In this document: positions 806-16,478 of the stretch, piece by piece | How the letters are laid out: every line of letters begins with the position of its first letter | Numbering within the stretch: the first letter of the stretch is position 1 | IMG/VR virus record: IMGVR_UViG_2802429235_000005 | Location: 1-16,478 of that record | Direction: 5' to 3' (one strand) | From: a virus | Lineage: Duplodnaviria > Heunggongvirae > Uroviricota > Caudoviricetes | Length of the DNA: 16,478 nucleotides | The notes under the pieces: model-generated | What the model saw: only the letters and a program-made list of their open reading frames with translations | Database searches by the model: none | What the model was told of the DNA's origin: nothing | Made by a program: the position numbers and the translations under genes

Positions 806-1261
806 TTATTGCTGGTATTGCCAACTGCTGACTAAAGCGTACAAGTGGTTTGGAGAATAGCGCCAGCTTTCCTTCAGTTGCAGAAATTCAGCACAAAATT
901 CACTGCAAAACAGGCGATCGCGCTGTTCTTTATTACCGGTAATAATTCCTAATGCTCCGCGCCAGTCATATTTCTTGCCATCATGTTTACGGAAAAAAGT
1001 TTCCACATCCTGAAGGCTGGCCTGGAGCGGCAGCATATCCCACTTATCCGCTGGCAATGGCATTATCTTTCCGCGTACACCGCGATCGCGCAGTGATGCA
1101 GAGTAACAAAGGTAACTCTTTTCACCATGCGCCACGGCTAATTCACAGTGGGAATAACTACCGTGTGTGATTTTACGGGTAAGCCAGTCAGCCAGTCGGG
1201 CAATACCACGGTGCTCTGTTCGGCCCTTATAACAAGCGAGCCAGACAGTGGTTTTACTCAT
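806..1261 (-). CDS. Hypothetical cargo protein; possible permuted NlpC/P60-type (YaeF/YiiX-like) Cys/His hydrolase
   Basis: 151-aa ORF whose ATG (1261-1259) overlaps the TGA of the upstream fibre chaperone (ATGA coupling). Motifs 'GSYSHCELAV' (S-H) and 'LFCSEFCAEF' (C-S-E) occur in the His-then-Cys order seen in permuted papain-fold amidases. Family assignment is by eye only. Confidence 0.5.
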   Translation of the reverse strand: MSKTTVWLACYKGRTEHRGIARLADWLTRKITHGSYSHCELAVAHGEKSYLCYSASLRDRGVRGKIMPLPADKWDMLPLQASLQDVETFFRKHDGKKYDWRGALGIITGNKEQRDRLFCSEFCAEFLQLKESWRYSPNHLYALVSSWQYQQ

Positions 1262-1965
1262 GGTTGCCAGCCTGTGGAGTAATCGTAGTCGAGCACCGCC
1301 TGAATATCGTCCAGAGCTTCCACCGCCGCGATATGACGCTGGGCGTTGGCGAACAGGCGCATATCGTGATCCATTGTTACCGATTCAAACTGAGCGGCGA
1401 TTTCGTTGGTTAACTCAATCAGACCGTTATTTTTAGTTTTCCACATTAAACCTGGAAGGATTTTTTTCTCCGCTCCCATTTTAGTGAGCGAGAGCTGTTG
1501 GATACGGCTATTTGTATCACTGTGGAAATGATGGTTGTTGATGATGATGTAATCGGTTGTGATGGCATCGCGTTGATTTTTGATTGCAGAGTATTTCGCC
1601 TCTTTAGCATCAGTTATGGATGGTTGCCATTTTTCACCATCCCAACGTTCAAAAGAACCTGTTGGGGAAATGATGGTGACAGTTTCAGGTAATTGGCCCA
1701 ATTCTTGAGTAATAAGCTGGCTACCATCAACTTTGTTATAAACAGTTTGCCCGCGATGATCTTCAATGAGCTCCCATTTTTCATTCACCCAAACAGGAGT
1801 AAAACCTGAAACCTTTTCGGGTGGTGAATTTAATGTGCAATGATTTGGCAAACCTGTATTAGGTGCAATGTATGCATCAGACTCACCGATATATTCTTGG
1901 GTGTCTTGTGAAAAGTTATAAACAGTCAGTATTTGAGCTTCATCGGAAAATGTAAAAGTATTCAT
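1258..1965 (-). CDS. Tail fibre assembly chaperone (P2 gpG / Mu gpU functional analogue)
   Basis: 235-aa ORF immediately downstream of the tail fibre gene with ATGA overlap (fibre stop 1964-1962, ATG 1965-1963). Position and size are typical for a fibre chaperone. Sequence looks more AT-rich than the baseplate genes. Confidence 0.6.
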
Positions 1966-3542
1966 GCTAGCCTCACAATATAATTGAATGCGATATTTTT
2001 AACGGTGTTTTCGGTATTGCCGGTATTATTAATGGTTATAGAGTGGTTATGGGCCCCAAGTGCAATTGAATGTGAATGGGTGCCGAGAGTAACAGTGTGC
2101 GAATGGGAACCAATTGTAATACTATGAGCGTGTGATGGAACATTAATAGCCAAAGATGATCCGGTACCAGGGCCATATGATGTCCAGTCGCCTTGGCCCT
2201 CTGGTGAAGATGTCCCTGTTCTTACTGTTGCAGTTGCCGAGCCTGAGCCAGATGAACTTGTTTTTTTATTACCATAGTTAAATGCTGATGTAGTTTTAGT
2301 ACCCAAGTCTGTTAAAACTGTGGTTTTCGTCCCTAAATCAGTATTCGAAATACTACCCGTATGGTTGTGCGATTTAACCCCATCCAGTTCAGTAGATAAT
2401 ATATTACGCCCACTGCTGGGTTTCCCTTTAATTATCCATCCACGCATATCAGGAATAACGCCAGATGGATATGCAATTGCCAGTTTGGGATATGAGGCTT
2501 TATTAAATGTCTGACCTGTCATCAGGGCGTAGCCAGAAGGTACAGAATCAGACGGCCAGGGAATAGGCATCCCTACAGGACAGCTTTCCGCAGCAATAGC
2601 CTTATCCATCGCTGCCTTAACCGCATTTGGTGTTGCAGCTTCCGTCGTACTGGTGCTGTTGGTCGCATTATTAAGCTTCACGACCCCTTTTTGTGTCAGC
2701 GTACTGTCGGGGATACCTGTTATTTGCCCCCAGGCATGGGTATGGCTGGCAGGTGCCGCAGCATTGGCCTTATCCATTGCGGCCTTAACCGCACTTGGCG
2801 TTGCAGCTTCCGCCGTACTGGTGCTATTTGTCGTGTTGTTAAGTTTAACGATCCCTTTCTGCGTCAGCGTACCGTCAGGGATACCAGTAATCTGATTCCA
2901 GGCATGAGTATGACTAGTGGCGGCTTTACTATTTGCCAGGTCATATGCCGCTTTTACCGCTTTTGGCGTGGCCGCTTTGGTTTCATCATCGCTATTGGTC
3001 GCATTACTCAGCAGCGTAAAACCTTTCTGCGTCAGCGTCGCATCAGGATGATTCCGTGATTGTTGATGTTCTTTCAGCGTTTCATCGACATATTCTCTGG
3101 TTGCTATAACGACTGAAGGGTCGATCAAAAGCGTCACCGCGTCAGCATTGGTCACTTCCATAACTGCGCGAATAACAATTTGCTTACTGGCACCCGCAGG
3201 TAATAGCGGTTTATAGGTTTCCGGAAATTTGCCAATAGCAACTAGTGTGCCGTCAGCATCCAGTAGCCCAACCTCGCGGACGTACCAGCCACCTACTTGT
3301 TCAGGAATAATCGTCTCTGCGATAACCCAGGCTGGATTATCAGGCGCAATTTTTAAGGTATTTAGTTGCCCACGCCAGACTTCATGCACAACTTTGGTTT
3401 GACTTTCTGTCGGCTCGACATAATGACCATTGCCATCGCCGACCACCATAGTTTGTAGGCGGATCTGTTTTTGCTCCGCCAGCGCAGAGGCAATTTTTGA
3501 TTTGCCTGCGGTGGTTAATATTGTAAAAAATTCACTTGCCAT
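1962..3542 (-). CDS. Tail fibre protein (P2 gpH-like N-terminal anchor, central tandem repeats, C-terminal HxH-rich tip)
   Basis: 526 aa. N-terminus '[37 protein letters not shown]...EVWRGQL' resembles the conserved P2 gpH-type fibre N-terminus. Three ~56-aa tandem repeats ('TLTQKG..L.NATNS...AATP.AVKAA.D.A'). C-terminal '[35 protein letters not shown]'. Confidence 0.9.
2583..3044 (-). repeat. In-frame tandem repeats (about 168 nt, 2.75 copies) inside the tail fibre gene
   Basis: Protein residues 167-320 form three consecutive copies of the same motif. The same periodicity shows up in the antisense plus-strand ORF 2653-2895 ('[14 protein letters not shown] ... [15 protein letters not shown]'). 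Confidence 0.85.
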
Positions 3543-3544
3543 AC

Positions 3545-4261
3545 TTACTCCGGGTATACAGACATAATTTCGGTACTCCAGTATCCTGTGCCGACATGAA
3601 TCGGTTGGGATTGTGTAATGCGATCAGGTTGATACGGAAAGAGATTTATGTATTCCTCAACACAGTAACCTGTCGCTAAAAATAGTGTCGATGACTGCCA
3701 AATACTCTCCGCAATAGGGGGTAATACAGTAATAACCTCCCCACCCTGGATTGCGCTGCCAATAACTGGCATTTGACTTTGGTTAATAAGCCAGATGGTA
3801 ATGCTTTCAAGTTTTGAACGAACATTTTTATATTCGTGAATTAATGCGATAAGTGCATTAAATTCATCTTCATTTAATCCTTTTTCCTCTAGTGTAATAT
3901 CAACCTTAAAAAAATAAGCCTTCCCCCCATATTCAAACCATTCTGAAATAGTTCCTGGTAGCGAAAGTATTTCCAGCACCCGCCGTACCGCCCAAATCGT
4001 TCCTTTATATTTATGCAGCTCAATGGCTTGCTTAATTAACTCGCGCTTCTCCCGTTCATCAGTGGTAAATAACCAACCTTCCAGCCCCTGAACGTGAAAT
4101 TGTTCTGCAAGCGTAGGCAAAGCCGAAGCATCAACCAGGTCTACCAGATAAACCATCAACGCCGTCAGATCGAGTTGGGCAAAACGCTCGGCAGCGATAT
4201 TTGCCAGAGTTGAAAAACGCTCATCGCTGGCAAGCGGCGGTGGCGGCAGCAATTTATCCAT
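3545..4261 (-). CDS. Baseplate protein, P2 gpI-like (Mu gp48 position)
   Basis: Sits between the gpJ-like and fibre genes. Internal '[26 protein letters not shown]' block and C-terminal '...GGEVITVLP' match the gpI pattern. ORF track start 4276 is TTG; ATG at 4261 has a GGAG 6 nt upstream, so 4261 is preferred. Stop TAA 3547-3545. Confidence 0.7.
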
Positions 4262-5369
4262 CGCTGACTCCGGCAATCGTGACGTCTATCGCGGTGCATT
4301 CCGCCCACTCATGCGCCTGCAAAATACGTTTTGTAGGCATATTCAGCGCAACGTCATAAACACCATCGACTTGTAACACTTTGATTATCTGGTTTGGCAC
4401 AATGTCCTGTCCCAGATGTGTTTGGCGCTGTTGCGTCCAGAGGCTAATCGCTTTATGCGCCTCAGCCAGCGTTGTTTCCTGATCGGCGGTGGTAAACAGC
4501 GTGAGCTGCGCACGGATCTCATACGGCACCCTAACGGCGCATTTCGCACTTACTTTGTCGGTCAGCGGACGTTTTTTCTCCTTGCTAACCTCCAGTTCAA
4601 TTTGCGCGAGCAGTTCCACGCCCGGCAGACCATTCAGCGTTAGCGGGTAGATCTCCACGCAGCCTTCTGGTAATCCTTCGTCCGGCCCCAGTACCGCGAC
4701 GTCAATAATCGACTGGCTTACGGAAAGCGTATGAAAGCGGTAGGCACCATAGCTGCCCGCATTGCTGAAACTTTCCGGCGCCAGTTGGATCCGCTGGCGT
4801 AGTGCGTCATCGCTCTCTTCACCGCAGCCGCCGGTTGAGGCCGTCAGGTTGGTCACGCTGATATCGTAATAACCAATCCTGTCAACAAGGGCGCTAATCT
4901 GTGCAGGCTGCCAGCCATTGCCCGCTTCGCCTGTTGCCAGACTGGTGGCGGGAACGGCGATATGCAAACTTCCCGCCGGAATCAGAACATCTTCATCGGT
5001 AGCAAACATCACGCTGTCAGAGGCGCTGGCACGTGTTCCTTGTGGAATTAGAATGTTATTTCGATTCTTACTGGCTACCGAAAACTGCAACGTGGTTTTT
5101 GCCGGTTGTGCAGGTAAGCGGTGAACGCCCACCAGCTCACCTAAATAATCCAGCATTGGCGCGCGGGAATACGCGACCAGATTCTGTTTCGCCGCTTCCT
5201 GAATGGCGATGCGTACAAGGTTTTCACGATAGGCAAAAAGGTCAATCAGCAACCGCTCGGCCTGTGCCGGGTAGAGCTTTTTGCCGCTGGCATCTTCATA
5301 CTGCGCAATCATCTCGCTGGTAATTTGCGCAGGATCGCGGTCAATAAAATCGGGTTCGGCTATCGCCAT
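4254..5369 (-). CDS. Baseplate wedge protein, P2 gpJ-like (Baseplate_J family)
   Basis: 371 aa. ATG 5369 preceded by GGAGGTG. Overlaps the gpW end by 10 nt and the gpI start by 8 nt. Conserved gene order W-J-I. Confidence 0.8.
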   Translation of the reverse strand: MAIAEPDFIDRDPAQITSEMIAQYEDASGKKLYPAQAERLLIDLFAYRENLVRIAIQEAAKQNLVAYSRAPMLDYLGELVGVHRLPAQPAKTTLQFSVASKNRNNILIPQGTRASASDSVMFATDEDVLIPAGSLHIAVPATSLATGEAGNGWQPAQISALVDRIGYYDISVTNLTASTGGCGEESDDALRQRIQLAPESFSNAGSYGAYRFHTLSVSQSIIDVAVLGPDEGLPEGCVEIYPLTLNGLPGVELLAQIELEVSKEKKRPLTDKVSAKCAVRVPYEIRAQLTLFTTADQETTLAEAHKAISLWTQQRQTHLGQDIVPNQIIKVLQVDGVYDVALNMPTKRILQAHEWAECTAIDVTIAGVSDG

Positions 5370-5719
5370 AACACCTCCGTTGAGTTGATTACGCCGTCAG
5401 CGGCGCGCCATTGCACACGTAACGTCAGATGTTCCCCGTCGATTACCGGTGTCACCTTCAGCAACCGGCAGCGCGGTTCCCACTGGCGGATGGCCTCTAC
5501 CGACTCCCTTACCACATGCGGAATCGCCCGCTCGATGGGATAATCGATGTAGTGCCACAAGTTGCTGCCAAACAGCGGTCTGTGGGGATCACTGCCGCGC
5601 GGTGTGCGCAGAATGATGTGTATTGCCTGGTGAATATCATCCAGTCCGCAGACGTATTCTTCAGGCCGCTGCAAGGCTGGTTGCCAGTGCAGCGTAGAGG
5701 GGCGTGTTGTCGTGTTCAT
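5360..5719 (-). CDS. Baseplate protein, P2 gpW / T4 gp25-like
   Basis: 119-aa ORF directly upstream of the gpJ-like gene. Size and the 'LFGSNLWHYIDYP' region fit the gpW/gp25 family. Confidence 0.75.
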   Translation of the reverse strand: MNTTTRPSTLHWQPALQRPEEYVCGLDDIHQAIHIILRTPRGSDPHRPLFGSNLWHYIDYPIERAIPHVVRESVEAIRQWEPRCRLLKVTPVIDGEHLTLRVQWRAADGVINSTEVLWR

Positions 5720-5780
5720 GAGGGTATTTTCGCCCTGAACAGGCGGCGGGGATATTAAAGCGATTTAAAAAACTGATTGA

Positions 5781-5812
5781 TTAAAAAGAGAAAACCCGCC
5801 ATCAGGCGGGTT
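5781..5812 (-). terminator. Intrinsic terminator-like hairpin plus U-tract between the gpV-like and gpW-like genes
   Basis: Minus-strand RNA reads TGA-cguuu-AACCCGCC-ugau-GGCGGGUU-UUCUCUUUUUAA: 8-bp GC-rich stem (plus-strand 5793-5800/5805-5812), 4-nt loop, then a U-rich run. Confidence 0.55.
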
Positions 5813-5817
5813 AAACG

Positions 5818-6519
5818 TCAGTGTGAATGGTGGTTGGAGTTGCCACCGCTGTCCTGCAATGTGCCGCTGGCCTGAACGTTACCAATCACATTAACATTGC
5901 CAGTTATCGTGGCGGCGTTGCCGATGCCTCCACTTCCTGCCATGCCACCAAGCCAGGTGAGTTTTTTCATCACTGTGACGTTGCCGGTAAAGGTGCTCAT
6001 GGGCGCATCTACCGTCACTGCTGCCGCTTTAACATCGACCTTACTGGCTTCAATGCTGACATCGGTGGCTTTCACATCAACAGTGTCGGAAGTCACGGTG
6101 ACGTGTTGGGCTTTAACCTCAACGTTGGGCGATGTCAGGCTGGTACGGTCAATAACCTCAATCACGATTTTTTCGATGCCACCATTAATCGTAAGCTGGT
6201 GGGTGCTGCGGTCATATTCAAACGCTGCGCCATCAGAAAACTGGACATAGCGTTTGTCGCGCGATGCTACTGGCGCGGTATCTACCGTTGAATATACTGC
6301 GCCCAGCACCACGCCATCTTCACCGTTATCATCCAGCAGAACTTCCACCTGTTCGCCCATATCCGGTAGCCAGTAATCCTTATTGTCCTGAGAATTGCGC
6401 TGCAGCACCGCAAGCCAGTTACTCTTCAGATTGTCACACTCTGGTAGCGTGACCCGCACCCGAACGCTGGTTTCGTCAATATCGCTGATAATCCCCGTTT
6501 GCCGGGTTACTCCTTTCAT
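5818..6519 (-). CDS. Baseplate hub/spike protein, P2 gpV-like
   Basis: 233 aa. 'DYWLPDMGEQVEVLL' and 'QFSDGAAFEYD' match gpV-type motifs. Followed by V/T-rich beta-helix-like periodic repeats and a His-rich C-terminal tip 'NSNHHSH'. AGGAGG upstream of ATG 6519. Confidence 0.8.
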   Translation of the reverse strand: MKGVTRQTGIISDIDETSVRVRVTLPECDNLKSNWLAVLQRNSQDNKDYWLPDMGEQVEVLLDDNGEDGVVLGAVYSTVDTAPVASRDKRYVQFSDGAAFEYDRSTHQLTINGGIEKIVIEVIDRTSLTSPNVEVKAQHVTVTSDTVDVKATDVSIEASKVDVKAAAVTVDAPMSTFTGNVTVMKKLTWLGGMAGSGGIGNAATITGNVNVIGNVQASGTLQDSGGNSNHHSH

Positions 6520-6528
6520 ATTGCCTCC

Positions 6529-7569
6529 TTACTGGCTGGTCGCTGGCCCGCGTGAAACGTCGATTTCAGTGGTATAGCCGCTGCGCACAAAACTGTGAGT
6601 AGATTTATCAATCAGCCACTGACCGGAAAGCACACCAAAATCGGTTAGCTCGATTTTATTGCCTGCCGTCAGTTCCGGGCAGCCCATCATCCTGAGCGTT
6701 CCGGTTTGTTGATATTCGTTGTGGCTGTCGAGCGCGGCGTTGGCCTTTGCCTGCGCCGCGCCAACGTCCGGCGCCCGACTGTTCAGTTTCAGCGTGTCGG
6801 CACTGGTGCCGACTCCACGGGCAGACGGCTTTTGCTGGCTGTCGTGAGTGTAGATAACCAGTTCTTTTTTCTTACTATTTTGATGCTGTACGGTGGCGTT
6901 TTTGTAGATGCGGTTAATGGTATCTTTGAAGGTGAAATGCGAAACGTCTTTGCGGTCGATCTTTTTCACCGGCGCCAGGCAGCGCAGCGTGGGTAAATGC
7001 GAAAAAATCAGCTCTTTGGTGGTCACCTTTACCGCATAGCCATATTCGCTGGCCAGGCGCTTGAGAAATCCGACATCGGTTTCGCCGTACTGTGTCACCC
7101 GGTCAATCGTCAGCGGCTCGATTTTGCCCACCAGCGTCAGGCCGTGAGTTTGCGCGATACGGCTGGCGATGGCTGAAAGCGTTGTCTCTTCAAAGCCCTG
7201 ACTGTTACGGGTGCGCAGCGCCTGATTGACGGAAGTGGCGATGCCATCAATATTTACCGTGGAAGGTGGTGCTGAAATGTCAATTTTATCAATGATATAT
7301 TGACCACAATCGAGCAGTTTTTCCCCCTGATAACCTATGTGCAGCGCCAGCGTATCGCCTTTGCCGGGATACCACTCTTTTATCCAGCGTCCATCGGTGT
7401 CATCCAGTGTGATCGCGATGGTATCCGACTCGTTTTTAATACTGTCCTGGTAACTGATGCTGGTGACATAAGGCGTGATGTCATAAGTGATATCTTTATG
7501 CCCATACCACAGGGTAAAAATGGGCGCGAGCGTGGCAAAGACGCCGCCAGTTACGCTTATCTCAGCCAT
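6529..7569 (-). CDS. Tail protein, P2 gpD-like (late control D family)
   Basis: 346-aa ORF between the gpX-like and gpV-like genes. Start ATG 7569 overlaps the gpX-like end by 13 nt. Size and position fit gpD / Mu P. Confidence 0.75.
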   Translation of the reverse strand: MAEISVTGGVFATLAPIFTLWYGHKDITYDITPYVTSISYQDSIKNESDTIAITLDDTDGRWIKEWYPGKGDTLALHIGYQGEKLLDCGQYIIDKIDISAPPSTVNIDGIATSVNQALRTRNSQGFEETTLSAIASRIAQTHGLTLVGKIEPLTIDRVTQYGETDVGFLKRLASEYGYAVKVTTKELIFSHLPTLRCLAPVKKIDRKDVSHFTFKDTINRIYKNATVQHQNSKKKELVIYTHDSQQKPSARGVGTSADTLKLNSRAPDVGAAQAKANAALDSHNEYQQTGTLRMMGCPELTAGNKIELTDFGVLSGQWLIDKSTHSFVRSGYTTEIDVSRGPATSQ

Positions 7570-7766
7570 GGTGGGATCTCCGATACGGTCTTGTTGACGG
7601 TAATGACCGGAATAATGAGCTGAATACCGGCAGGCAGTACCGGATAAATGGCGACATGTGGATTGGCGGCGATAATGCGTTCATAAGCCAGTGCATCACC
7701 GTAGTAATGCCATGCCAGGTTATCCCAGCGTTCGCCGTCGGTGGTGATATGTTCAAGGTATCGCAT
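7557..7766 (-). CDS. Tail protein X, P2 gpX-like (LysM-like)
   Basis: 69 aa. 'TTDGERWDNLAWHYYGDALAYERIIAANPHV' follows the gpX pattern (G-D-x-LD ... YYG ... ANP). TAATG overlap with the upstream gene. Confidence 0.7.
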   Translation of the reverse strand: MRYLEHITTDGERWDNLAWHYYGDALAYERIIAANPHVAIYPVLPAGIQLIIPVITVNKTVSEIPPWLR

Positions 7767-8719
7767 TACCAGCTCCTCGTAATGGTCGCGGCAGCGAGCT
7801 GAGTCACTGCGGGAGTGGTTTGCTGTACCGTTGTACGCGCCTGCTCAACCAACGTTGTGGCTTTATCGAAAGTTGCTTCGGCGATGGCGCTGGTGATGCT
7901 GCCAAACAGTTCTTGTGCATGGTCAACCAGTGTCCCGGCGTCTTCGGCACAGTCGCGGATGCCCGGCATGTTACCCAGCAATGCTTTAATCTGCGCCGAC
8001 AACGCTTTTGGTAATCCTGCCAGCGTTTGCAGATCCATCGGCTGTTTAAACAGGGTTTCGATGGCATCAATAGTCTTTTTCAACGACTTAATTATCTTTT
8101 CACACTTTTCTTTTAACGCTTTGGCCTCTTTAATCAGTGCTTTGACCTTTGCCACTGTTTTTTTAATATCTTCAATGGATTGCGCCAGTTCATCGATCAT
8201 CTCTTTGGCTTTGCGCATACCTTCTTCAATGGCGTTCAATATCTGATCCAACCAGGACTCCACCTTGTCCGGAAAATCGCTCGCCTTTTCGTCAATATTA
8301 GGCTCCTGGGTGGTAATCGCCGGGGGCAGGAGTGGGTTTTTCGGATCGCCGGTATACTCCTGGAGCGACATTGTTCCGCTTTGGGCAATGACATTGCCCC
8401 AGGGATCGGTGTGCTGGTGAGTGGCGGTTAACTCTGTAATTACAAACCAGCCGCGATAATCACCGTTGCCAAACACCAGCGCCATTGCTTTGTGGGCAAG
8501 CATGGCTTCACGCAGTCGATTCAGCTCTGTTGTGGGTTGGCAAAACTGGCTGTGCAGGGAAAATTCCAGCGCCAGCATGTCCAGCTTATCGCCAATAAAC
8601 TGCACGCCAGGTTTGCCTTCAATACGGGCATGTGTGGCGTAATCCACGCCCATTGTGCTTTTAAAGCCGTCCCAGAATGTGACAACTTTAAATTCAATCT
8701 CACCTAAAACGGCATACAT
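7766..8719 (-). CDS. Tail protein, P2 gpU / Mu N (DNA-circularisation protein N-domain)-like, with coiled-coil-rich C-terminal half
   Basis: 317-aa ORF immediately after the tape-measure gene (TGATG overlap), the conserved position of gpU/N. The C-terminal half is heptad-like and K/E/A-rich ('KAKEMIDELAQSIEDIKKTVAKVKALIKEAKALKEKCEKIIKSLKK'). Confidence 0.5.
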   Translation of the reverse strand: MYAVLGEIEFKVVTFWDGFKSTMGVDYATHARIEGKPGVQFIGDKLDMLALEFSLHSQFCQPTTELNRLREAMLAHKAMALVFGNGDYRGWFVITELTATHQHTDPWGNVIAQSGTMSLQEYTGDPKNPLLPPAITTQEPNIDEKASDFPDKVESWLDQILNAIEEGMRKAKEMIDELAQSIEDIKKTVAKVKALIKEAKALKEKCEKIIKSLKKTIDAIETLFKQPMDLQTLAGLPKALSAQIKALLGNMPGIRDCAEDAGTLVDHAQELFGSITSAIAEATFDKATTLVEQARTTVQQTTPAVTQLAAATITRSW

Positions 8720-11079
8720 CAGGCATACCCCCGGCGCTGTTGCTGCGCCATTACGTCGTTAATCATTCTTTCCAGTTCGCGTTTACTCATCGTCAATACG
8801 TTCTGAATGTCTTTAGTGGTGTTTTGTCCGTTACCCTGCACGGTAATTTGTGGCGAAAAATTCACCTGGACTTTTCCTGGGGAACGGGAGGGTAGCGTCG
8901 CCGGTTTGGTTACGGATTTACCTGATAAAGAGGCCGACGCGGGTTTTGCCACTGGCGCCGATGACGGCGTTGTCGTTTTGCTGGATGGCGCGAGTTGTTT
9001 GCCCACTGGAGGCGTTAAAAGCGCACCGGCAACGCCTGGAACAACGGTCGCGGGGGAGACTGATGCGGTATTAGTCGTGCCTGTAACAGTCGCAGCCGAT
9101 GCTTCTGTGCCGATCCCCATTGTGGCTTTTAGCCAGTCTGGCATGGCGTTTTTGACCTGATCAATAATGCCTTTCAGAGCGGGGAAAGCATTCATTATGC
9201 CGTCGGCCAGGCTAGCCAGTATATTGCTGCCGAACTCGCTAAAACTCGCAGGCATCTCAACACCAAACCAATTCATCACACCGGAAAAGGCGCTGTAGAA
9301 CAGCCCCAGTGGCGACCAGTCGAGAATCAACCGGCTAATACCTGCAATGCCACCGTCAAAGGCCGTGGTAATACGTTTCCAGATGGCGGAAAAGAACCTG
9401 GTGATAGGTTCCCAGTTGCGATAAATCAGATAAGCCGCGCCCGCAATCGCAGTGATGACCAGACCAATGGGATTCATCAGTAGCACCCGGCCTAGTGAGA
9501 GAACGGTTCGACCAACCAGTTTCAATGCTCCGATCAGGCCACGACCAAGCAGTTGCGTTAGCCATTTTGCGCCGCCACCCAATGACTTAACCGCCAATAG
9601 CACCTTACTCGCTGCGCCTCCGGGCGCCAGACTTGCCCTGACTTTCAGGAAGATATCGACCAGACGAATAAACGGCGAGGCGATGAAGTTCGCGCCCAGC
9701 TTTAAAACATTCAGCGCGCCGTTAAACAGCCAAATCGCCCCGACGATTTTCGCAATGTTTTGCACCAGCGCCGGATGTTCGCGTAGCCAGGCGCTGAACT
9801 GGCGAATAACCGGCGCAAGGCTTTGCGCCAGCTCGCCAATCGCCGGCATAAGTTGTAAGCCAATGCTGAGCCATAAATCATTTAACGCCAGTTGTAACGC
9901 TTTAGTCTGTTCAATGGGCGAAGCCATTTGCGCAGAAAAGTCGGCATCAATCAGATTCTTGCTGGTGGCTTGCATGGCAGAGGCTTTTAGCTGGCGATAC
10001 TCTTCCATGTTCGCCAGCATAGGGGCCAGGAATTCCACCGTTTGTGCATCGCCGAACATTTCGTCCAGATTAAACTGCGTCACCATCGATTGCAGCGCAG
10101 TGCTGCGGGCAGATAAATCTTCAATCTGCATGGTGCGTTTGAAGGTATCGAGGATCGCCGGATTCATCTTCTCAAGCTGCATTTGCACGATATGAGTCAT
10201 GGCTTCGCTAACACCCATACCGTTTTGCTGATGCTCAAGCAGAGAACCTTGCAGATCGACGCCCTGGCTGGCGAACCAGCTATCGGTTTTTTTCGAAAAG
10301 GTGGTTTGCAGAAAATGGTCGAAATTCTCCGCCGCTGTACTGGCGCTGGCACCGTTTTTCATGGCGATCTGCATGGTGGCGGTCAGTTCAGCCATACCTT
10401 CCAGACCCTGAGTGCCGGTTTTACCTGCAAATTTCTCTATCCACTGCGTTTGTTCGGCAATGGCAGGCCCACCGCTTTTGGTCACGCTGTACATCATGTT
10501 TTGCGCGGCGTTGAAATTTTCCGGGGCAATATTCAGTCGATCATGAGTCGCGAGCGCGGCTTTCGCCCATGTTTCGGCGCTGTCGCGCGTGGCGGTGGCG
10601 GCTTTGGCGATCTCCGGCATATAGCGGTTGAGATCCTGCAAGGACGATACATTGCCTTCAACTAAGGTCAGAGCGGCGGACTGTAACGTGGTCTGCTGCT
10701 GGTTAAAATCCATACTCCAGTCGCGCAGATTCAGGCTGAGCGTCTCGCGAGTGGCATCACTCATCCCACCTTTGGCCGCCATATTGACCATATTGTCCTG
10801 AAACTCATACGGTAACTTCCAGTCGGGGGCTTCAACATTGAATACTTTGCTAAATTGCCCGGCAAATGTTTGGGTTTTCTCCATCAGATTAGCGCGGCTG
10901 CGGCTATTTTCCTCCAGGCGGAGAGCGGAATCGGCAAGTCGCTGCGTTAGTTTGATAACTGTCGCTTGCTGAGTAGAGAGAGTTAACAATGTTCTGGCGT
11001 TGAGTGAGCCGTAACGGGCTATTGCCTGCGTCAACGTCTCATTACGCGCCTGAAGCTGGGTAATAATATCGTTGGCCAA
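8719..11079 (-). CDS. Tail tape measure protein
   Basis: 786 aa, the largest ORF, between chaperone and U-like genes. Internal hydrophobic segments and a P/S/T/A-rich low-complexity region near the C-terminus. Apparent TTG start at 11079 preceded by AAAGAGAAA; an in-frame TAA lies 5 codons upstream, so the ORF cannot extend further 5'. Confidence 0.85.
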   Translation of the reverse strand: MANDIITQLQARNETLTQAIARYGSLNARTLLTLSTQQATVIKLTQRLADSALRLEENSRSRANLMEKTQTFAGQFSKVFNVEAPDWKLPYEFQDNMVNMAAKGGMSDATRETLSLNLRDWSMDFNQQQTTLQSAALTLVEGNVSSLQDLNRYMPEIAKAATATRDSAETWAKAALATHDRLNIAPENFNAAQNMMYSVTKSGGPAIAEQTQWIEKFAGKTGTQGLEGMAELTATMQIAMKNGASASTAAENFDHFLQTTFSKKTDSWFASQGVDLQGSLLEHQQNGMGVSEAMTHIVQMQLEKMNPAILDTFKRTMQIEDLSARSTALQSMVTQFNLDEMFGDAQTVEFLAPMLANMEEYRQLKASAMQATSKNLIDADFSAQMASPIEQTKALQLALNDLWLSIGLQLMPAIGELAQSLAPVIRQFSAWLREHPALVQNIAKIVGAIWLFNGALNVLKLGANFIASPFIRLVDIFLKVRASLAPGGAASKVLLAVKSLGGGAKWLTQLLGRGLIGALKLVGRTVLSLGRVLLMNPIGLVITAIAGAAYLIYRNWEPITRFFSAIWKRITTAFDGGIAGISRLILDWSPLGLFYSAFSGVMNWFGVEMPASFSEFGSNILASLADGIMNAFPALKGIIDQVKNAMPDWLKATMGIGTEASAATVTGTTNTASVSPATVVPGVAGALLTPPVGKQLAPSSKTTTPSSAPVAKPASASLSGKSVTKPATLPSRSPGKVQVNFSPQITVQGNGQNTTKDIQNVLTMSKRELERMINDVMAQQQRRGYA

Positions 11080-11171
11080 AATTGTTTCTCTTTAAATATT
11101 GATAATGGCCCGCTGGTTATTTTTCTAAAAAAAAGGGGCAGGGAAGAAATAAACCTGACGGGCTTGGAAAA

Positions 11172-11194
11172 CTCGCAGACATCAGGTCTGCGAG
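11172..11194 (-). promoter_or_regulatory. 9-bp-stem hairpin in the chaperone / tape-measure intergenic region
   Basis: Plus strand ctcgcagac-atcag-gtctgcgag. On the minus strand it is followed by UUUUCC (weak U-tract). It contains the stop of a +1-frame ORF that overlaps the chaperone gene end. Confidence 0.35.
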
Positions 11195-11269
11195 TCATAT
11201 TCGATTTTTATTTGGGCGTTGGCTTCATCCAGCCAGTTGCTAAAGTCATCGACGGTAAGGGCGTCTATC

Positions 11270-11587
11270 TCACTGGGCGGAAAGCGAAACCATCTTGCCA
11301 GTAACGCCATCGCTTGCCATAACAGTGGCAGATTCTGTAGCCACGCTAAGCATGGATTGAAATCGTTTCTGCAATGCCTGGTAATCCAGCAAATCCATTT
11401 CAGCTAAATCTTCTGGCACCAGTCCGGTCATTGCAGCCATTAGCGGTTCATCCCATTCTTCTGGTTTTTCGCTGATCCGGCGCGCGTTGCGCATATCTTT
11501 TACTTTCAGGCGACGTAATTGCAGAGTGTTAATTACGTCTCCCGCCGCTGAAGTAAACGGGAACTGTAAGGTATAATGTTCTTTCAT
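11270..11587 (-). CDS. Tail assembly chaperone (P2 gpE-like position)
   Basis: 105-aa ORF between the tube and tape-measure genes. AGGA 7 nt upstream of ATG 11587. Position is the conserved chaperone slot; no canonical -1 slippery heptamer found. Confidence 0.5.
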   Translation of the reverse strand: MKEHYTLQFPFTSAAGDVINTLQLRRLKVKDMRNARRISEKPEEWDEPLMAAMTGLVPEDLAEMDLLDYQALQKRFQSMLSVATESATVMASDGVTGKMVSLSAQ

Positions 11588-11615
11588 TTTGTATCCTTAT
11601 TGGTCATGCGGAAAT

Positions 11616-11631
11616 CGGGGCCGTAGCCCCG
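11616..11631 (-). promoter_or_regulatory. GC hairpin between the tube and chaperone genes (possible attenuator)
   Basis: cggggc-cgta-gccccg, a 6-bp perfect GC stem with 4-nt loop, 7 nt after the tube stop and not followed by a strong U-tract. Confidence 0.4.
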
Positions 11632-11637
11632 AATAAC

Positions 11638-12162
11638 TTAGCCACCGATGTTATTGCGATAGGTACTTAATTGATCCACGCCGTTAACGCGGAAAATATT
11701 CGCCAGGTAATCCAGTTCCAGTAGTGTTTCACCATCGACCACCTGTTTAATATAGGTACAACCAAAGGCGCTGCTGAATTCCGGGTTTTCATTCTGTTTA
11801 AATGTTCCCAATGGATTCTTTTTAAACATAACAGTCAAATGAGTGACTAACGCTAATTGATTCGCTTTCCCCTGGGAGTTATAGCAATCAATACTGGAGC
11901 GGCACTGTAATGCTACCGCCTGCCACGGGTTTGCCGTTTTACGCATGACGTCCTGATAAAAGGAGTTCCATTTAATTTCCCCTTCCAGTTTATCGAAACC
12001 TGCCGGGAGTTCGATTTTGCCGACCATGCCCAGTGCTTTATGCTCCTGCATAATTAAACTGACATCCGGTAATTTAATTTCGGTTGCACGACCTAAAAGG
12101 TTATTACCATCGAGATAAATATTGGCATTGGTAATACGGTTAATTTGAATTTTTCCAGCCAT
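11638..12162 (-). CDS. Tail tube protein (P2 FII-like)
   Basis: 174 aa. N-terminal 'IYLDGNNLLGRATEIKLP' and C-terminal 'VDGETLLELDYLANIFRVNGVDQL' match the FII tube pattern. TAATG overlap with the sheath gene. Confidence 0.8.
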   Translation of the reverse strand: MAGKIQINRITNANIYLDGNNLLGRATEIKLPDVSLIMQEHKALGMVGKIELPAGFDKLEGEIKWNSFYQDVMRKTANPWQAVALQCRSSIDCYNSQGKANQLALVTHLTVMFKKNPLGTFKQNENPEFSSAFGCTYIKQVVDGETLLELDYLANIFRVNGVDQLSTYRNNIGG

Positions 12163-13586
12163 TAGCTATTGCTCTCCAGAGAGACTAAATATTCAGAGGT
12201 AATTTCAGTTTCAAACGTCAGACGTTCCAGCGGCGGTGGCGGGGTGAATTTATAGCTCAGCAATAAATGCCCGGCACTGAGTTCGGTCGGTGAATTTCGC
12301 GCCGGATCGTACCAGCACTCAAAGCCAAGCAGTGCGCCGTCGGCAATCAGCTTACGGCCCCAGGTATTTACCGACTCGGTCAGGGCATCAATTAGCGCCT
12401 GATTAATCGGCATATCGATATACTGCTGGCTGAAATAACGGATCGACTCGTTAATCACATCACCCGTGCGGCGAACGTTTTCAAAGTTACGCATATGGGT
12501 CACGGTTGGCCATGCCGCAGTGCGGTTGCCCCATAAACGCAGACCAGAGCCGTAACTATTGAAAACTGTGGTAATGCCGTTTTCGTTGAGCTGATTCACT
12601 TCACTTTGCGGGTCATCAACCATTGCGGAAAGTGAACGTTCGATACCGATAATGCCCTGAATTTCCTGGTTTGAGTTGCTCCACCAGAAACCTTTCTCCA
12701 GGTCTACTTTGGCACGCAGTCCGGCAGCGCGTGAAGAGAGCGGTTCGAGAACTTCCTGGTTGGTTGCGCCGTCATAAACTTTGACGTGCGGATAGCACAA
12801 ACGCGCACGGTCAGAACTGGTGTTGAAGTTGATTGCGCCTTTCGAGCCGCGACCAGCCAGCACCTGCTGGAATGTAGTACCGATTGGGGCGTCAATGTAG
12901 GCGATAGCACCGAGTTTTTCCGCCTGAGCAATCAGTTCGGTGGTGACCGATTTTTGCGTACAGAAAACGGGAGCAAGCAGGATTTTGGCGTAGAAACCAT
13001 ACAGGTTATAGGTATCCTGTAGCAGTTTCATCCCAGTGCGATCGCCTGCGGTATTAACGGCGCCAATAATATCGGCTGCGGTAACTTTTGTTGGATCGGC
13101 CCATGAGTAATAGGCACAAACTTTCGCTCCGGCAGGGATCTCAGTCTCTGCACGAGTGATTATTCCTGTTTGTTCATCAACATGAAACGCTGTGCTGCTA
13201 TACGTAGTGGCTGATGTTGAAGAGGGTTTCAGGACGACATTACGCACCGCACGATGAGCCAGTTTTGCCTGGTTGTTGGAATCAAAAGTGATACTCTCAT
13301 TGCTGATGCTGGAGCCATGTTTTGCCGGATCCAGTACGTTAATCACCACCACCGTACCGGCGCCGTGGTCATAAATCGCCTTCAGCGCCTGCGGGATAGT
13401 AAAGTTAGCCTGAGTCGAGCCAAACTGCGCGGCATCGCTTTCAGAAAGGCACAATGTTGGTTTGTTTACCGGACCGCATGGTGCACTACCGATTAAAGCG
13501 ATTACAGCGGATTTTACCGCTTTAACCGGGCGCGGACCGGTTTCAATTTCAATGGTTTCTACACCGTGCAGGTAATTAGCTGCCAT
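12162..13586 (-). CDS. Contractile tail sheath protein (P2 FI / Mu L-like)
   Basis: 474-aa ORF directly upstream of the tube gene. ATG at 13586 preceded by AGAGGAAA; the ORF-track start 13592 is a TTG two codons earlier. Confidence 0.85.
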   Translation of the reverse strand: MAANYLHGVETIEIETGPRPVKAVKSAVIALIGSAPCGPVNKPTLCLSESDAAQFGSTQANFTIPQALKAIYDHGAGTVVVINVLDPAKHGSSISNESITFDSNNQAKLAHRAVRNVVLKPSSTSATTYSSTAFHVDEQTGIITRAETEIPAGAKVCAYYSWADPTKVTAADIIGAVNTAGDRTGMKLLQDTYNLYGFYAKILLAPVFCTQKSVTTELIAQAEKLGAIAYIDAPIGTTFQQVLAGRGSKGAINFNTSSDRARLCYPHVKVYDGATNQEVLEPLSSRAAGLRAKVDLEKGFWWSNSNQEIQGIIGIERSLSAMVDDPQSEVNQLNENGITTVFNSYGSGLRLWGNRTAAWPTVTHMRNFENVRRTGDVINESIRYFSQQYIDMPINQALIDALTESVNTWGRKLIADGALLGFECWYDPARNSPTELSAGHLLLSYKFTPPPPLERLTFETEITSEYLVSLESNS

Positions 13587-13773
13587 GTACAATTTCCTCT
13601 CCGTTATTTTGTTCTTCCTGAGTGATGACAGGAGTCAGGTGATTGCGGGCAATCATGGTCATAACCCACTCGTTTTCTTCTGGCAGATCAATTTCACTGT
13701 TCGGCCACAATAAGATTTCTTGTCCGTCGGCAAGGGTGACGCCGCTTGCCGGGCCGTTGTAGATGTATTTCAT
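13576..13773 (-). CDS. Small conserved-position protein (Mu gp38-like slot), function unknown
   Basis: 65-aa ORF. ATGA overlap with the upstream gene and 11-nt overlap with the sheath start, so it is translationally coupled on both sides. Confidence 0.5.
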   Translation of the reverse strand: MKYIYNGPASGVTLADGQEILLWPNSEIDLPEENEWVMTMIARNHLTPVITQEEQNNGEEIVHGS

Positions 13774-14225
13774 TCAGTTTCCTCGTAATTAACTTCAGTA
13801 AGCAGGGTAAGGTCCGTGCTTTCCCGTTTTGCGATAAACAGCGATCTGGTCGCCATTTCCAGGATGTAGCGGCAGAAACCACCGCTCTCGCCTGCATTGA
13901 TTTCTGTTTCAAGCCAAAGAAGACGCTCGCAATCAGGAAGCTGGATCCCCCCCAATGCGCTGCGTATGCGATCCAGTGCGTTTAACGCGCCACAATTTTT
14001 GCCAACAATAACGGTGGCAGTTAAACGGAGCGTTTGCTGTTGCACGAGGGCATCACTGCTTTCAGGCATGGCAAATAGAGAACCGCTATAATTAATAATC
14101 ACTGTAACTTTCTGCGTCTGCGGAATATATTTATTGGCATCAACCGATGAAATAAATACGTCCATTTCGGGATTCTGTTCACGTAATCTGGTCACAACAG
14201 AATTAATTACAGATAAAATTTCCAT
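13770..14225 (-). CDS. Tail-associated protein (Mu gp37-like slot), possibly tail completion/terminator
   Basis: 151-aa ORF, first gene after the lysis-cassette terminator. AAGGAA 8 nt upstream of ATG 14225. Function inferred from position only. Confidence 0.5.
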   Translation of the reverse strand: MEILSVINSVVTRLREQNPEMDVFISSVDANKYIPQTQKVTVIINYSGSLFAMPESSDALVQQQTLRLTATVIVGKNCGALNALDRIRSALGGIQLPDCERLLWLETEINAGESGGFCRYILEMATRSLFIAKRESTDLTLLTEVNYEETE

Positions 14226-14330
14226 ATAGGGTGTTCCTTAATTACTGCTCACTTCGTTATCGTTGAAATGTATTCTGAAGCAGTGAAGGTGAAGAATCTT
14301 TTAATGTGATTTAGAGAAAAAATTGAATGG

Positions 14331-14366
14331 CTATAAAAATCCCCACACTTACGTAAAGGTGGGGAT
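14331..14366 (-). terminator. Intrinsic terminator after the lysis cassette
   Basis: Minus-strand RNA has stem AUCCCCAC / GUGGGGAU (plus-strand 14339-14346 / 14359-14366) with an internally palindromic loop, followed by UUUUUAU. Begins about 5 nt after the spanin-like stop. Confidence 0.6.
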
Positions 14367-14370
14367 GTAT

Positions 14371-14685
14371 TTAATAGCTGCCACGTTGTAATAGCTCTAT
14401 TTTGCTATATAAGGCATCCAGCTTTGCTTCTAATACTGCCTGGCCACGAAGATAATCTTCTCTGCGGACATAATGCAGCGGAAGCTCGGCACGAAATTCG
14501 AGAAATTCTCTTTCCAGTTTCGACCAGCTTGTTTCTGATTCCCGGCGCGCGTTTTCCAGAGATTCAAAACGCTCATTAAGTCTTTTTTCAATTTGCGCTA
14601 ACAGCAATTTTCCGGCAGCAAACATTAATCCAACGAAGGAAAGCATAAGGGAGATCACTTCCCAAAAATCGATACTGAGTTTCAT
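14371..14685 (-). CDS. Lysis accessory protein, Rz-like i-spanin candidate (N-terminal TM helix plus coiled coil)
   Basis: 104 aa. 'VISLMLSFVGLMFAAG' transmembrane segment followed by a charged heptad-rich region. Immediately downstream of the lysozyme gene; GAGGGG upstream of the ATG. Confidence 0.45.
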   Translation of the reverse strand: MKLSIDFWEVISLMLSFVGLMFAAGKLLLAQIEKRLNERFESLENARRESETSWSKLEREFLEFRAELPLHYVRREDYLRGQAVLEAKLDALYSKIELLQRGSY

Positions 14686-14697
14686 CGGCCCCTCTGA

Positions 14698-15303
14698 TTA
14701 GTGAAGACAGCTTGCCTGCCCCCAGAGTAAGTAGCGGGCGGCATGTTGATAGAGGATCATCTTCGGATAGTGACGATTTTCTCGCCAGTTTGCGGCACTA
14801 CGCCCGGCGTTGACGTGCTCAACATGACCAAACCAGATGGTGGCATCTAACCCTTTGGATGCGGCCAGTTTTTTATCCCGATTAACCCATCCCTGACCAC
14901 CGTTATAGGCGCTTAGGGTAAACGCCATACGCTGGCAGCCATTTTTCGCCGAGATGTTTTTCCACAAATGCTGGTCATATTGCACCAATGCGCGAATCGC
15001 CCAGGTTGGGTTATAGGGCTTGTTTTCACGTAGCTGTGGATACAACTGGCTTATCCATGTCGCTGTGGCAGGCATAAATTGCGCCATACCCTGTGCGCCG
15101 ACGGGGGAACGCGCCATTGGCTGCCAGGCTGATTCCTGGTGCAACTGCCCGGCGAAGTCTGCCACCGGGGCGTTCAGTCCCCAGACTTCTCGTGCAGTTC
15201 GAATCAGTTCGTTTCGCCATGCCAGAGATGCTCGCGGCGGTTCAGATGCGTTAAGCGGGAAGAACGCGAACAGAGTAATTAGCGCGAGAAATTTTACCTG
15301 CAT
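14698..15303 (-). CDS. Lytic transglycosylase (SLT family) with N-terminal signal sequence; endolysin candidate
   Basis: 'QESAWQPMARSPVGAQGMAQFMPATA' matches the SLT catalytic motif (E-S ... G-A-x-G-x-M-Q-x-M-P-x-T-A) and 'LSAYNGG' the AYNxG motif. N-terminus 'MQVKFLALITLFAFFPLNA/SE' from ATG 15303 (AGGA 7 nt upstream). The ORF-track 5' extension to 15402 is rejected. Confidence 0.8.
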   Translation of the reverse strand: MQVKFLALITLFAFFPLNASEPPRASLAWRNELIRTAREVWGLNAPVADFAGQLHQESAWQPMARSPVGAQGMAQFMPATATWISQLYPQLRENKPYNPTWAIRALVQYDQHLWKNISAKNGCQRMAFTLSAYNGGQGWVNRDKKLAASKGLDATIWFGHVEHVNAGRSAANWRENRHYPKMILYQHAARYLLWGQASCLH

Positions 15304-15305
15304 CA

Positions 15306-15593
15306 CTAAAGTCCTAACGCGACGGAAAGGCAGACGGCTGCAACGATGATAGCCCGACGAATCATTGCCGCCGCGCAGCATCGCGCCTCTTCCCAGGGGC
15401 AAAATGAGTCAGGCCGCGCCCAGGGAAACAGACTGCGATCGAGCCAGTATCCCAGCACAGCGGCGAGCGAAACCAGACTTAGTTTATAAATGACAACCGG
15501 GATCTGTGCGGAAGATGTACAGCCGATCGCGACAAACAGCGCGACGGAAGCGACCAGCCAGCCGGAAAGACGGGGAAAAGTGACTTTTTTCAT
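15306..15593 (-). CDS. Holin-like small membrane protein
   Basis: 95-aa ORF with AGGAG 7 nt upstream of ATG 15593. Two or three hydrophobic segments. Immediately precedes the lysozyme gene (stop TAG 15308-15306, lysozyme ATG 15303). Confidence 0.5.
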   Translation of the reverse strand: MKKVTFPRLSGWLVASVALFVAIGCTSSAQIPVVIYKLSLVSLAAVLGYWLDRSLFPWARPDSFCPWEEARCCAAAMIRRAIIVAAVCLSVALGL

Positions 15594-15889
15594 ACGATAT
15601 CTCCTGATAAGTGAGCGTTTAGTGTCGCCAGATCCCTCCAGTGAAGAATGAAAAAAGCTTTAATAAATAACTTTAAAAAATAGATCCTCTATAAATGAAC
15701 ATGCTTGCTAATAAATCCACCCATTAATAAAAGAGCAAAAGGTGTCCTGGAGAATAAGCGCGTCATTATGCAGGGAAAAGAGGATGGTGAATCGTAGGAA
15801 TAGCCCATAGTCATTTGATTTTTAAAGTTTGTTTAAGAAAGTCAGCGACTGTGAGGGAAACGATCTTTTTACACTACAGGTAAAAATAA

Positions 15890-15909
15890 TACTGTATGCA
15901 CATACAGTA
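15890..15909. promoter_or_regulatory. LexA (SOS) operator, near-consensus
   Basis: TACTGTATGCACATACAGTA: CTGT-N8-ACAG palindrome matching the enterobacterial consensus TACTGTATATATATACAGTA at about 17/20 positions. Located in the divergent control region. Confidence 0.7.
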
Positions 15910-15930
15910 TCGTGTAAAATGATACTCCAG

Positions 15931-15961
15931 TTGACAAGAAACATAACGCAAACAATATATT
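15931..15961 (+). promoter_or_regulatory. Candidate sigma-70 promoter directed toward the Mor-like gene
   Basis: Perfect -35 TTGACA (15931-15936) followed 17-19 bp later by an A/T-rich -10-like AATATA/TATATT (15954-15961). Gives a roughly 170-nt leader before ATG 16131. Confidence 0.35.
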
Positions 15962-16130
15962 TATTTTGTGAATTTATGACGTTCATTAATATTAAAAATT
16001 TATATTTTTGGTGATTGTTTATTTGTTTGTTGAATGTATTGAGTAGCAGTAATGACAACTGCTTAGCGTATATCCGTGGTTTTACACGCATCGGGTCTTA
16101 TACAGGATGCAAGATATATGGAGATGAAAA

Positions 16131-16478
16131 ATGATACGAAAATCAAAAGAGATGGCCCGGACACCGGAGATCATTAACGACCTGGCGTTTCATGCATCGC
16201 AAGTTCTGATTGAGAGCATCAATCTCGACAGTTCATCGGCGGAAAATGTGGGCTTTGCCATTGCCGACCGAATGATGCGTAACTGGGGTGGGCAAAGCAT
16301 TTATTTCCCGAAAGGGATCTCCGGACGGGCGTCGGAGCGTGACTACCAAATCTATAGCGAGTGCGATGGTCGCAACTACGCCGAATTAGCGAAGAAATAT
16401 AATCTGACGTTGCAATGGATTTATAAGATAGTGAAACGCGTACATGCGGAAAAGCAACAGCGCCGTAGTAATTCGTAA
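16131..16478 (+). CDS. Mor/C-family transcriptional activator (phage Mu middle/late activator family)
   Basis: 115 aa. 'NWGGQSIYFPKG' and C-terminal 'DGRNYAELAKKYNLTLQWIYKIVKR' (HTH) fit the Mor/C pattern. GGAG 7 nt upstream of the ATG. Divergent from the lysis/tail cluster. Confidence 0.65.
   Translation: MIRKSKEMARTPEIINDLAFHASQVLIESINLDSSSAENVGFAIADRMMRNWGGQSIYFPKGISGRASERDYQIYSECDGRNYAELAKKYNLTLQWIYKIVKRVHAEKQQRRSNS

Follow-up and report, generated by a model that had tools for sequence, protein, structure and literature searches.

A near-consensus LexA box as the probable SOS switch of an enterobacterial phage tail-only island, acting through a Mor-family activator gene

How would a set of phage tail and lysis genes be switched on in DNA that encodes no repressor of its own? 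The question is raised by a 16,478-nt stretch of viral DNA (referred to below as the window), in which a contractile-tail operon (806-14225, minus strand) and a lysis cassette (14371-15593, minus strand) are accompanied by a divergently read gene, mor (16131-16478, plus strand). The tail operon comprises gp37, sheath, tube, chaperone, tape measure, gpU/X/D/V/W/J/I-like, fibre and fibre assembly genes, and the cassette encodes a holin (15593-15306), an SLT-domain endolysin (15303-14698) and a lipoprotein (14685-14371). The window has intact reading frames for all 19 tail and lysis genes and for mor. In E. coli the island lies between yjbD and lysC, and its annotation across this interval lacks genes for a capsid, packaging, replication, an integrase or a repressor. 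With a full contractile-tail set, its own lysis cassette and core-gene flanks, the island is, as known here from its genes, an R-type tailocin-like cluster; the literature searched contained no report of particles or killing by it. With no repressor, integrase or capsid gene encoded, the one evident sensor is LexA.

About 200 of 5,426 complete E. coli chromosomes (about 4%) match the window at about 94% identity, and one E. coli scaffold (L080) does so at 99.3%; carrier strains include E. coli A10 (NZ_CP028764) and 2021CK-01784 (NZ_CP104371). The Salmonella LT2 counterpart is STM4198-STM4219, and the island is also found in Salmonella 14028. A lysC-pgi-adjacent layout is common to Salmonella, Dryocola, Phytobacter, Superficieibacter, Enterobacter and metagenomic lineages, and the same lysC site is occupied in at least six genera. 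In the Salmonella copy (L002, 7321-10156) a gtrABC O-antigen glucosylation cassette (STM4204-4206) lies between the baseplate genes gpV and gpW, and the annotated gp37 is shorter. A slipin-family gene and a gene for an RlaP-like nucleotidyltransferase (PF10127, E=1e-97) are found inside the yjbD-lysC insertion, upstream of the tail cluster (window 1-792; L001 3599-5523); they may represent an unrelated accessory or defence module.

The product of mor, of 115 AA, is a Mor/C-family transcription activator with a C-terminal HTH. It matches Pfam PF08765 (E=7e-38), PHROG 532 'late transcriptional activator' (1e-35) and the Mu Mor structure, PDB 1RR7 (E=5e-8), and more than 11,000 assembly blocks contain the identical protein.

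A first-pass annotation of the window had described a near-consensus LexA operator with a CTGT-N8-ACAG core and TA flanks, to be checked with a position weight matrix. The sequence TACTGTATGCACATACAGTA at 15890-15909 agrees with that description base for base and forms a 9+2+9 palindrome. The CTGT-N8-ACAG core occurs only once in the whole window; as a bare core is also present in 29 of 200 dinucleotide shuffles of the window, however, the core alone is weak evidence. For scoring we used a LexA matrix of 25 E. coli SOS boxes, listed after Lewis 1994 and Fernandez de Henestrosa 2000 rather than taken from a curated file. With this matrix TACTGTATGCACATACAGTA scores 24.6 bits, above recA (23.2), sulA (22.9), lexA (19.4-19.7) and polB (12.0), the consensus reaching 30.5 bits. 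The second-best site anywhere in the window has 10.6 bits, and none of the 200 shuffles attains 24.6 bits (top shuffle, 19.0). The heterology-like index of TACTGTATGCACATACAGTA is 4.18.

We then compared the DNA upstream of Mor homologues in a genome set with one genome per species, in which loci with a Mor identity of at least 80% were taken as close. All six close relatives in this set carry a box of 22.5-29.5 bits, located 240-311 bp before the mor ATG; boxes of 19-30 bits precede mor in the window, E. coli, Salmonella, Dryocola, Phytobacter and two Superficieibacter. On viral contigs, 22 of 25 further close copies have a box of 19-27 bits; the close viral copies lie on contigs of 5-17 kb, most of which end at mor. 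Overall, 28 of the 33 close copies that we examined have the box, at 239-311 bp before mor, and none of 123 Mor genes at distant loci has one. No LexA score above 8.1 bits was obtained at the 68 distant loci in genomes (Pectobacterium, Pseudomonas, Burkholderiales, Pasteurellaceae and others), and none above 7.5 bits for the 55 distant Mor genes from Mu-like viral contigs, many of them on contigs of 35-45 kb, typical of whole Mu-like phages. A count of intact operators made with an 81-nt megablast query is too low, since the variable centre of the box breaks the 28-nt words. The close copies without a box are those of Enterobacter (L085/L086, 2230-2300) and three from viral contigs (L109, L113 and L114). 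In the Enterobacter copies both the box and the adjacent motif GTGTAAAATG are lost and the late-promoter block, the A/T-rich block on the holin side, is degenerate, a joint decay that speaks for the control scheme proposed below; the holin, endolysin, gp37 and mor ORFs are still open.

Within the box, conservation is distributed unevenly. Among 12 lineage representatives the CTGT and ACAG arms are invariant, at 2.00 bits per position, and the central four bases have 1.00 bits per position; the 40 bp left of the box have 0.50, and bases +13 to +40 of the right flank 0.47. At least eight centre alleles were counted in all, five of them within E. coli. Invariant arms combined with a free centre and scrambled flanks fit selection for LexA binding, and would not be given by a hairpin or a chance palindrome. 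Enterobacterial LexA recognises exactly this CTGT-N8-ACAG type of motif, and the hosts here are enterobacteria. The score together with the phylogenetic footprint makes it very likely that TACTGTATGCACATACAGTA is a functional LexA operator. As an SOS box it is ordinary, though strong and previously unlisted.

Which promoter the operator covers was examined on both of its sides. Starting 2 bp right of the box, GTGTAAAAT is conserved at 1.95 bits per position in 10 of 12 lineages (L003 and L101 left out), and the invariant motif GTGTAAAATG occupies 15912-15921, directly right of the operator. The -10-like TAAAAT announced just after the box is indeed present at 15915-15920, 5 bp from it, and is its conserved partner, both hexamer and spacing being unchanged in 10 of 12 lineages. 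The proposed rightward mor promoter (15892-15920, plus strand) would consist of CTGTAT (15892-15897), a 17-bp spacer and TAAAAT, so that the left half-site of the box doubles as a -35-like element. With a predicted start near 15927, which in Salmonella corresponds to about 209 nt before the STM14_5073 ATG, the box would span -37 to -18, and a pyrimidine-purine step is seen 7-9 nt past the TAAAAT hexamer in most lineages. The -35 is poor and the combined sigma-70 score is about 3.8. In L101 the right flank has been replaced, yet a rightward promoter (GTGATT-17-TATATT) is predicted with its -10 inside the box, and a rightward promoter is predicted under the box in every box-bearing lineage examined.

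The first-pass annotation had pointed to a TTGACA -35 directed at the Mor-like gene, about 20 bp past the operator, without choosing the promoter that is occluded. A position of the operator on a promoter facing this gene is supported here, though by way of CTGTAT-17-TAAAAT and not through TTGACA. The latter hexamer is present (15931-15936) and, with CAATAT (15953-15958) or TATATT (15956-15961), forms a promoter-like site at 15931-15961 on the plus strand. It starts 21 bp past the box, which therefore lies upstream of it and not over it, and it is confined to Escherichia copies, other genera having GTGAAG or AGAAAG. Being specific to Escherichia and downstream of the box, TTGACA cannot be the conserved target, and we rejected it as such; in Escherichia this promoter could bypass LexA. 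A mirror promoter, TTTACA (15868-15873)-16-TACTGT (15890-15895) on the plus strand (15868-15895; score 5.9), has the left end of the operator as its -10; it too is found in Escherichia and is absent from other genera.

Further conserved elements lie left of the operator. The block GTGAGGGAAACGATCTTTTT (15851-15870), which contains GATC (Dam) sites, is situated 22-33 bp from the operator in Escherichia, Salmonella, Phytobacter and the L101 lineage; the Salmonella and Phytobacter copies have the form CGATC-T5/6-GATCG. Another element, an A/T-rich block at 15818-15841 (plus strand), is an inverted second copy of the holin-side block at 15658-15681, to which 18 of its 24 bases are complementary, and the two 24-nt copies share an exact 11-mer (AACTTTAAAAA / TTTTTAAAGTT). 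Escherichia, Salmonella, Phytobacter and Dryocola all retain the 15818-15841 copy, which is followed after 20 bp by a -10-like GATCTT (15862-15867) and after 48 bp by the LexA box. On the other side, in the mor leader (16080-16125), GCACC and GGTGC, about 50 nt apart, could pair just upstream of the mor ribosome-binding site; they are kept in most genera, and the window reads ACAAC and GATGC. An RNA structure in this leader was considered and dropped, as it amounts to one 5-bp stem with no compensatory changes. Intergenic small ORFs were discarded as well, none of them falling within DNA alignable across genera, and an Rfam scan of 15400-16478 at E<=1 matched nothing. The African ST313 strain D23580 has a C>T SNP relative to strain 4/74 (4/74 position 4458827) in the STM4218-STM4219 spacer, which is the Salmonella regulatory region (PMC6333337 supplement).

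Sites at which Mor could act are found upstream of both the lysis cassette and the tail operon. The candidate lysis promoter (15621-15681, minus strand) has the A/T-rich block at 15658-15681, which is invariant, followed after 31 bp by a -10-like GACACT (15626-15621). This hexamer reads GACACT or GATACT, there is no -35, and no indels occur between the holin ATG and the A/T-rich block in seven copies from five genera, the sequence farther upstream being scrambled. An intrinsic terminator (14333-14364, minus strand; CCCCAC...GTGGGG plus a T-run) follows the cassette, so the tail operon probably has a promoter of its own. The terminator is present in Salmonella and Superficieibacter, and is deleted precisely in E. 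coli 2021CK-01784 (L001, about 18954-19070). A candidate tail-operon promoter (14272-14320, minus strand) comprises a block ending ATTAAAAG (14305-14298), 20 bp and a -10, CAGAAT (14277-14272); upstream of gp37, xAxAAT and the upstream block are invariant in six copies, with no -35 hexamer. A search of the window with up to 3 mismatches gave no additional copies of the late-promoter block. The holin and gp37 upstream regions are thus plausible activator-dependent promoters.

The promoters activated by Mu Mor have a -10 and no -35; Mor binds there to a 16-bp dyad centred at -43.5, just upstream of which lies an A/T-rich alpha-CTD site (PMC4390567). Inspection of the holin and gp37 promoter regions revealed no Mu-type 5-6-5 dyad at -43.5. 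Instead, these regions have A/T-rich blocks with TTAAAG-type repeats, which span about -44 to -67 for holin and about -33 to -49 for gp37. As no such dyad was recognised, we infer from family homology and the conserved -35-less regions that the lysis and tail promoters are under the control of Mor, a step to which we give moderate confidence.

These elements can be joined in the following scheme. In the undamaged cell, a LexA dimer on the operator would cover -37 to -18 of CTGTAT-17-TAAAAT and block transcription of mor, which begins about 200 nt downstream. If the established SOS mechanism applies, DNA damage would activate RecA, LexA would cleave itself and mor would be transcribed. Mor would then act on the -35-less promoters of the holin/endolysin cassette and the gp37/sheath operon, and late-gene expression would yield tail particles and lysis of the producer cell. 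We consider it likely that TACTGTATGCACATACAGTA represses mor, and probable that, as a functional LexA operator of the high-affinity type, it serves through mor as the master switch of the tail-only cluster. This suggests that DNA damage directly triggers a tailocin-like, self-lysing weapon.

One published expression dataset, the only one found, bears on the induction of mor by DNA damage. In Salmonella treated with nalidixic acid, STM14_5073 rose 4.08-fold, from 49 to 204.5 TPM (PMC8072944 Dataset S1). We take this 348-bp plus-strand CDS, about 21 kb beyond yjbD, as the mor orthologue by its size, strand and position only. In the same comparison 1,091 genes went up, ribosomal proteins among them (PMC8072944), so this increase is not SOS-specific. 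The list of genes raised at least 2-fold includes no lysis or tail gene (STM14_5045-5072), and STM14_5073 is absent from the authors' table of 48 SOS genes (PMC8072944). The first-pass prediction that DNA damage de-represses the activator thus agrees with the direction of the change, which is modest and not SOS-specific. In the literature searched, no paper described this island or its regulation; start-site data for it were found neither in the PMC6333337 supplements nor in PMC4643027, and PMC7067206 omits the island. The 'SOS boxes' tested by EMSA in the ExPEC vesicle paper are weak, non-canonical and at other prophage loci (PMC9621596). The 'ST131 tailocin' (PMC9205054) was considered as the same island and rejected, being a complete P2-like prophage.

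Promoters are predicted across the box on both strands, and its main target might instead be the leftward one. LexA would then directly repress, in the manner of colicin operons, a transcript with a leader of about 290 nt running into holin and endolysin, and mor would be controlled secondarily or not at all. This sigma-70-like promoter (15891-15918, minus strand) consists of TTTACA (15918-15913), a 16-bp spacer and TACAGT (15896-15891), with a predicted start near 15884, facing holin. It is the best sigma-70 match over the box (8.0 vs. about 3.8 rightward), and no other promoter was predicted at a constant position throughout the seven regions first compared; it scores 8.0 in six of them and 5.4 in Dryocola (TTTACA-17-AACAGT). 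Its -35 (read as TGTAAA) belongs to the invariant motif, and no terminator was found between it and holin. Yet TACAGT is inherent in any consensus LexA box, and the invariant T and G beyond TGTAAA are accounted for only by the rightward TAAAAT. The sequence around the predicted leftward start is rich in pyrimidines, and its leader is not conserved; in the Salmonella nalidixic-acid data mor is up, and holin and endolysin are not. Two lineages tell the two promoters apart: L100 (AGCTGT; -10 TACAGC) and L101-L103 (ATCTGT; TACAGA) keep the box but no longer have the final T that is essential to the leftward -10, and L101 has no matching leftward -35, while a rightward promoter is still predicted under its box. 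The mor-facing promoter is therefore the common denominator. We regard the leftward promoter as unlikely to be the main target and its additional use as rather unlikely too; where used, it may add direct LexA control of the lysis cassette in most lineages.

Two other readings would remove LexA control of a working cluster altogether. The palindrome could be kept for a reason other than LexA, as the site of another dimeric regulator, as a cruciform or hairpin, or as a target of recombination or insertion, and it is indeed near-perfect, with an ISL3-family element inserted exactly in its centre in several E. coli genomes. A hairpin, however, would show co-variation of centre and outer stem, where we see invariant CTGT and ACAG arms around a free centre; a terminator is a poor fit to a palindrome with no T-run and an unsuitable 2-nt loop; the island carries no regulator gene besides mor; and the motif is exactly of the type that the LexA of the host recognises. 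This reading is very improbable. So too, we believe, is the reading of the box as a LexA-binding relic in a decaying prophage remnant whose cluster is silent or non-functional, to which the loss of the box in several lineages and its splitting by the IS in others, the gtrABC interruption of the Salmonella copy and the lack of induction of the Salmonella late genes by nalidixic acid could be attributed. Against it stand the intact tail, lysis and mor ORFs of the window and the shared lysC site across genera. Moreover, the arms are invariant across genera while the neighbouring intergenic DNA is change-saturated, which argues for ongoing purifying selection.

The centre of the box shows patterns of its own. 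The centre alleles ATGCACAT, ATGTGCAT, ATGTGTAT, ATATGTAT, ATGTACAT, ATATATAT and ATATGCAT are alternating purine-pyrimidine sequences that differ from the consensus by transitions only, the exceptions seen being those of Dryocola (TTATTTAT), L108 (ATGTAAAA) and the L101-L103 lineage (ATATTTAC/ATATTTAT). Symmetric changes (G9 with C12, A9 with T12) occur in several alleles. The ISL3-family element that splits the box has the ends GGGTCTTCCC...GGGAAGACCC and a 406-AA transposase. In L079 (441-452 and 1766-1780, equivalent to window 15896-15903) its 8-bp target duplication, ATGTGTAT, corresponds to the N8 of the box, and the CTGT and ACAG half-sites are separated. The insertion is also found in L081, L083 and L084, and the left IS junction in three complete E. 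coli genomes; CP024826 and CP195049 are examples with an ISL3-split operator. In L083 the same IS site carries a different centre allele, ATGTACAT, and the left side is rearranged, suggesting independent insertions.

A more elaborate and, in our judgement, quite improbable proposal is that the control region works as a commitment switch, in which a weak LexA-occluded promoter would supply a little Mor, Mor would activate its own gene and induction would become bistable. A second, -35-less mor promoter would then be formed by the block at 15818-15841, 20 bp and GATCTT (15862-15867), reading through the vacated operator. Under the same proposal, the 8-bp centre of the box would be a recurrent ISL3 target by which lineages disarm the weapon.

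With regard to other studies, a genome-wide Salmonella SOS survey left this near-consensus box unlisted, though its own data show the gene induced (PMC8072944). Among tailocins of Enterobacterales, the regulators of Dickeya P2D1 are stated as still unknown (PMC12297226), and no regulator is given in the kosakonicin and Dickeya papers. One strong LexA box before the island's only regulator offers a simple model for how DNA-damaging antibiotics could set off the making of tail particles and autolysis in these species.

In colicin operons (colE1 cea-kil) LexA represses bacteriocin and lysis genes through a strong SOS box, and in the island, too, host LexA would gate a lethal release programme with no element-encoded repressor. 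The SOS boxes of colicins are tandem, lie just downstream of the -10 and exert one-step control. The island, in contrast, has a single box over the -35 and spacer of an activator gene, and its product would be a phage-tail particle; as the box sits on the promoter of the activator gene, its control would be a two-step cascade. Such a cascade resembles that of R/F-pyocins (PrtR/PrtN) and maltocin (MpsR/MpsA/MpsH), in which damage removes a repressor and a small activator then turns on tail and lysis genes (PMC12297226); the island shares this logic. Pyocins, however, use a dedicated CI/LexA-like PrtR and PrtN with P-boxes, whereas the island would use host LexA and an unrelated activator of the Mor/C family, the sole regulator annotated between yjbD and lysC, where no PrtR/PrtN-type genes are annotated. 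The island thus belongs to neither the pyocin nor the colicin control scheme. With Mu it has in common the activator family (1RR7) and candidate targets with a -10, no -35 and A/T-rich DNA upstream; Mu itself has mor in its early operon, controlled by the Mu repressor and not by LexA, whereas here it lies under a LexA box. A further parallel is with phage antirepressors (186 Tum, Fels-2, Gifsy GftA), where LexA holds a small trigger gene off until the SOS response sets in (PMC7067206, PMC8072944): the island likewise has one host-LexA operator on a small trigger gene in a phage-derived element. Antirepressors inactivate a phage repressor, whereas the trigger of the island would itself be the late-gene activator, in an element with no repressor, replication or capsid module. 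The kind of LexA operator is thus already known, and what is new is the combination of parts.
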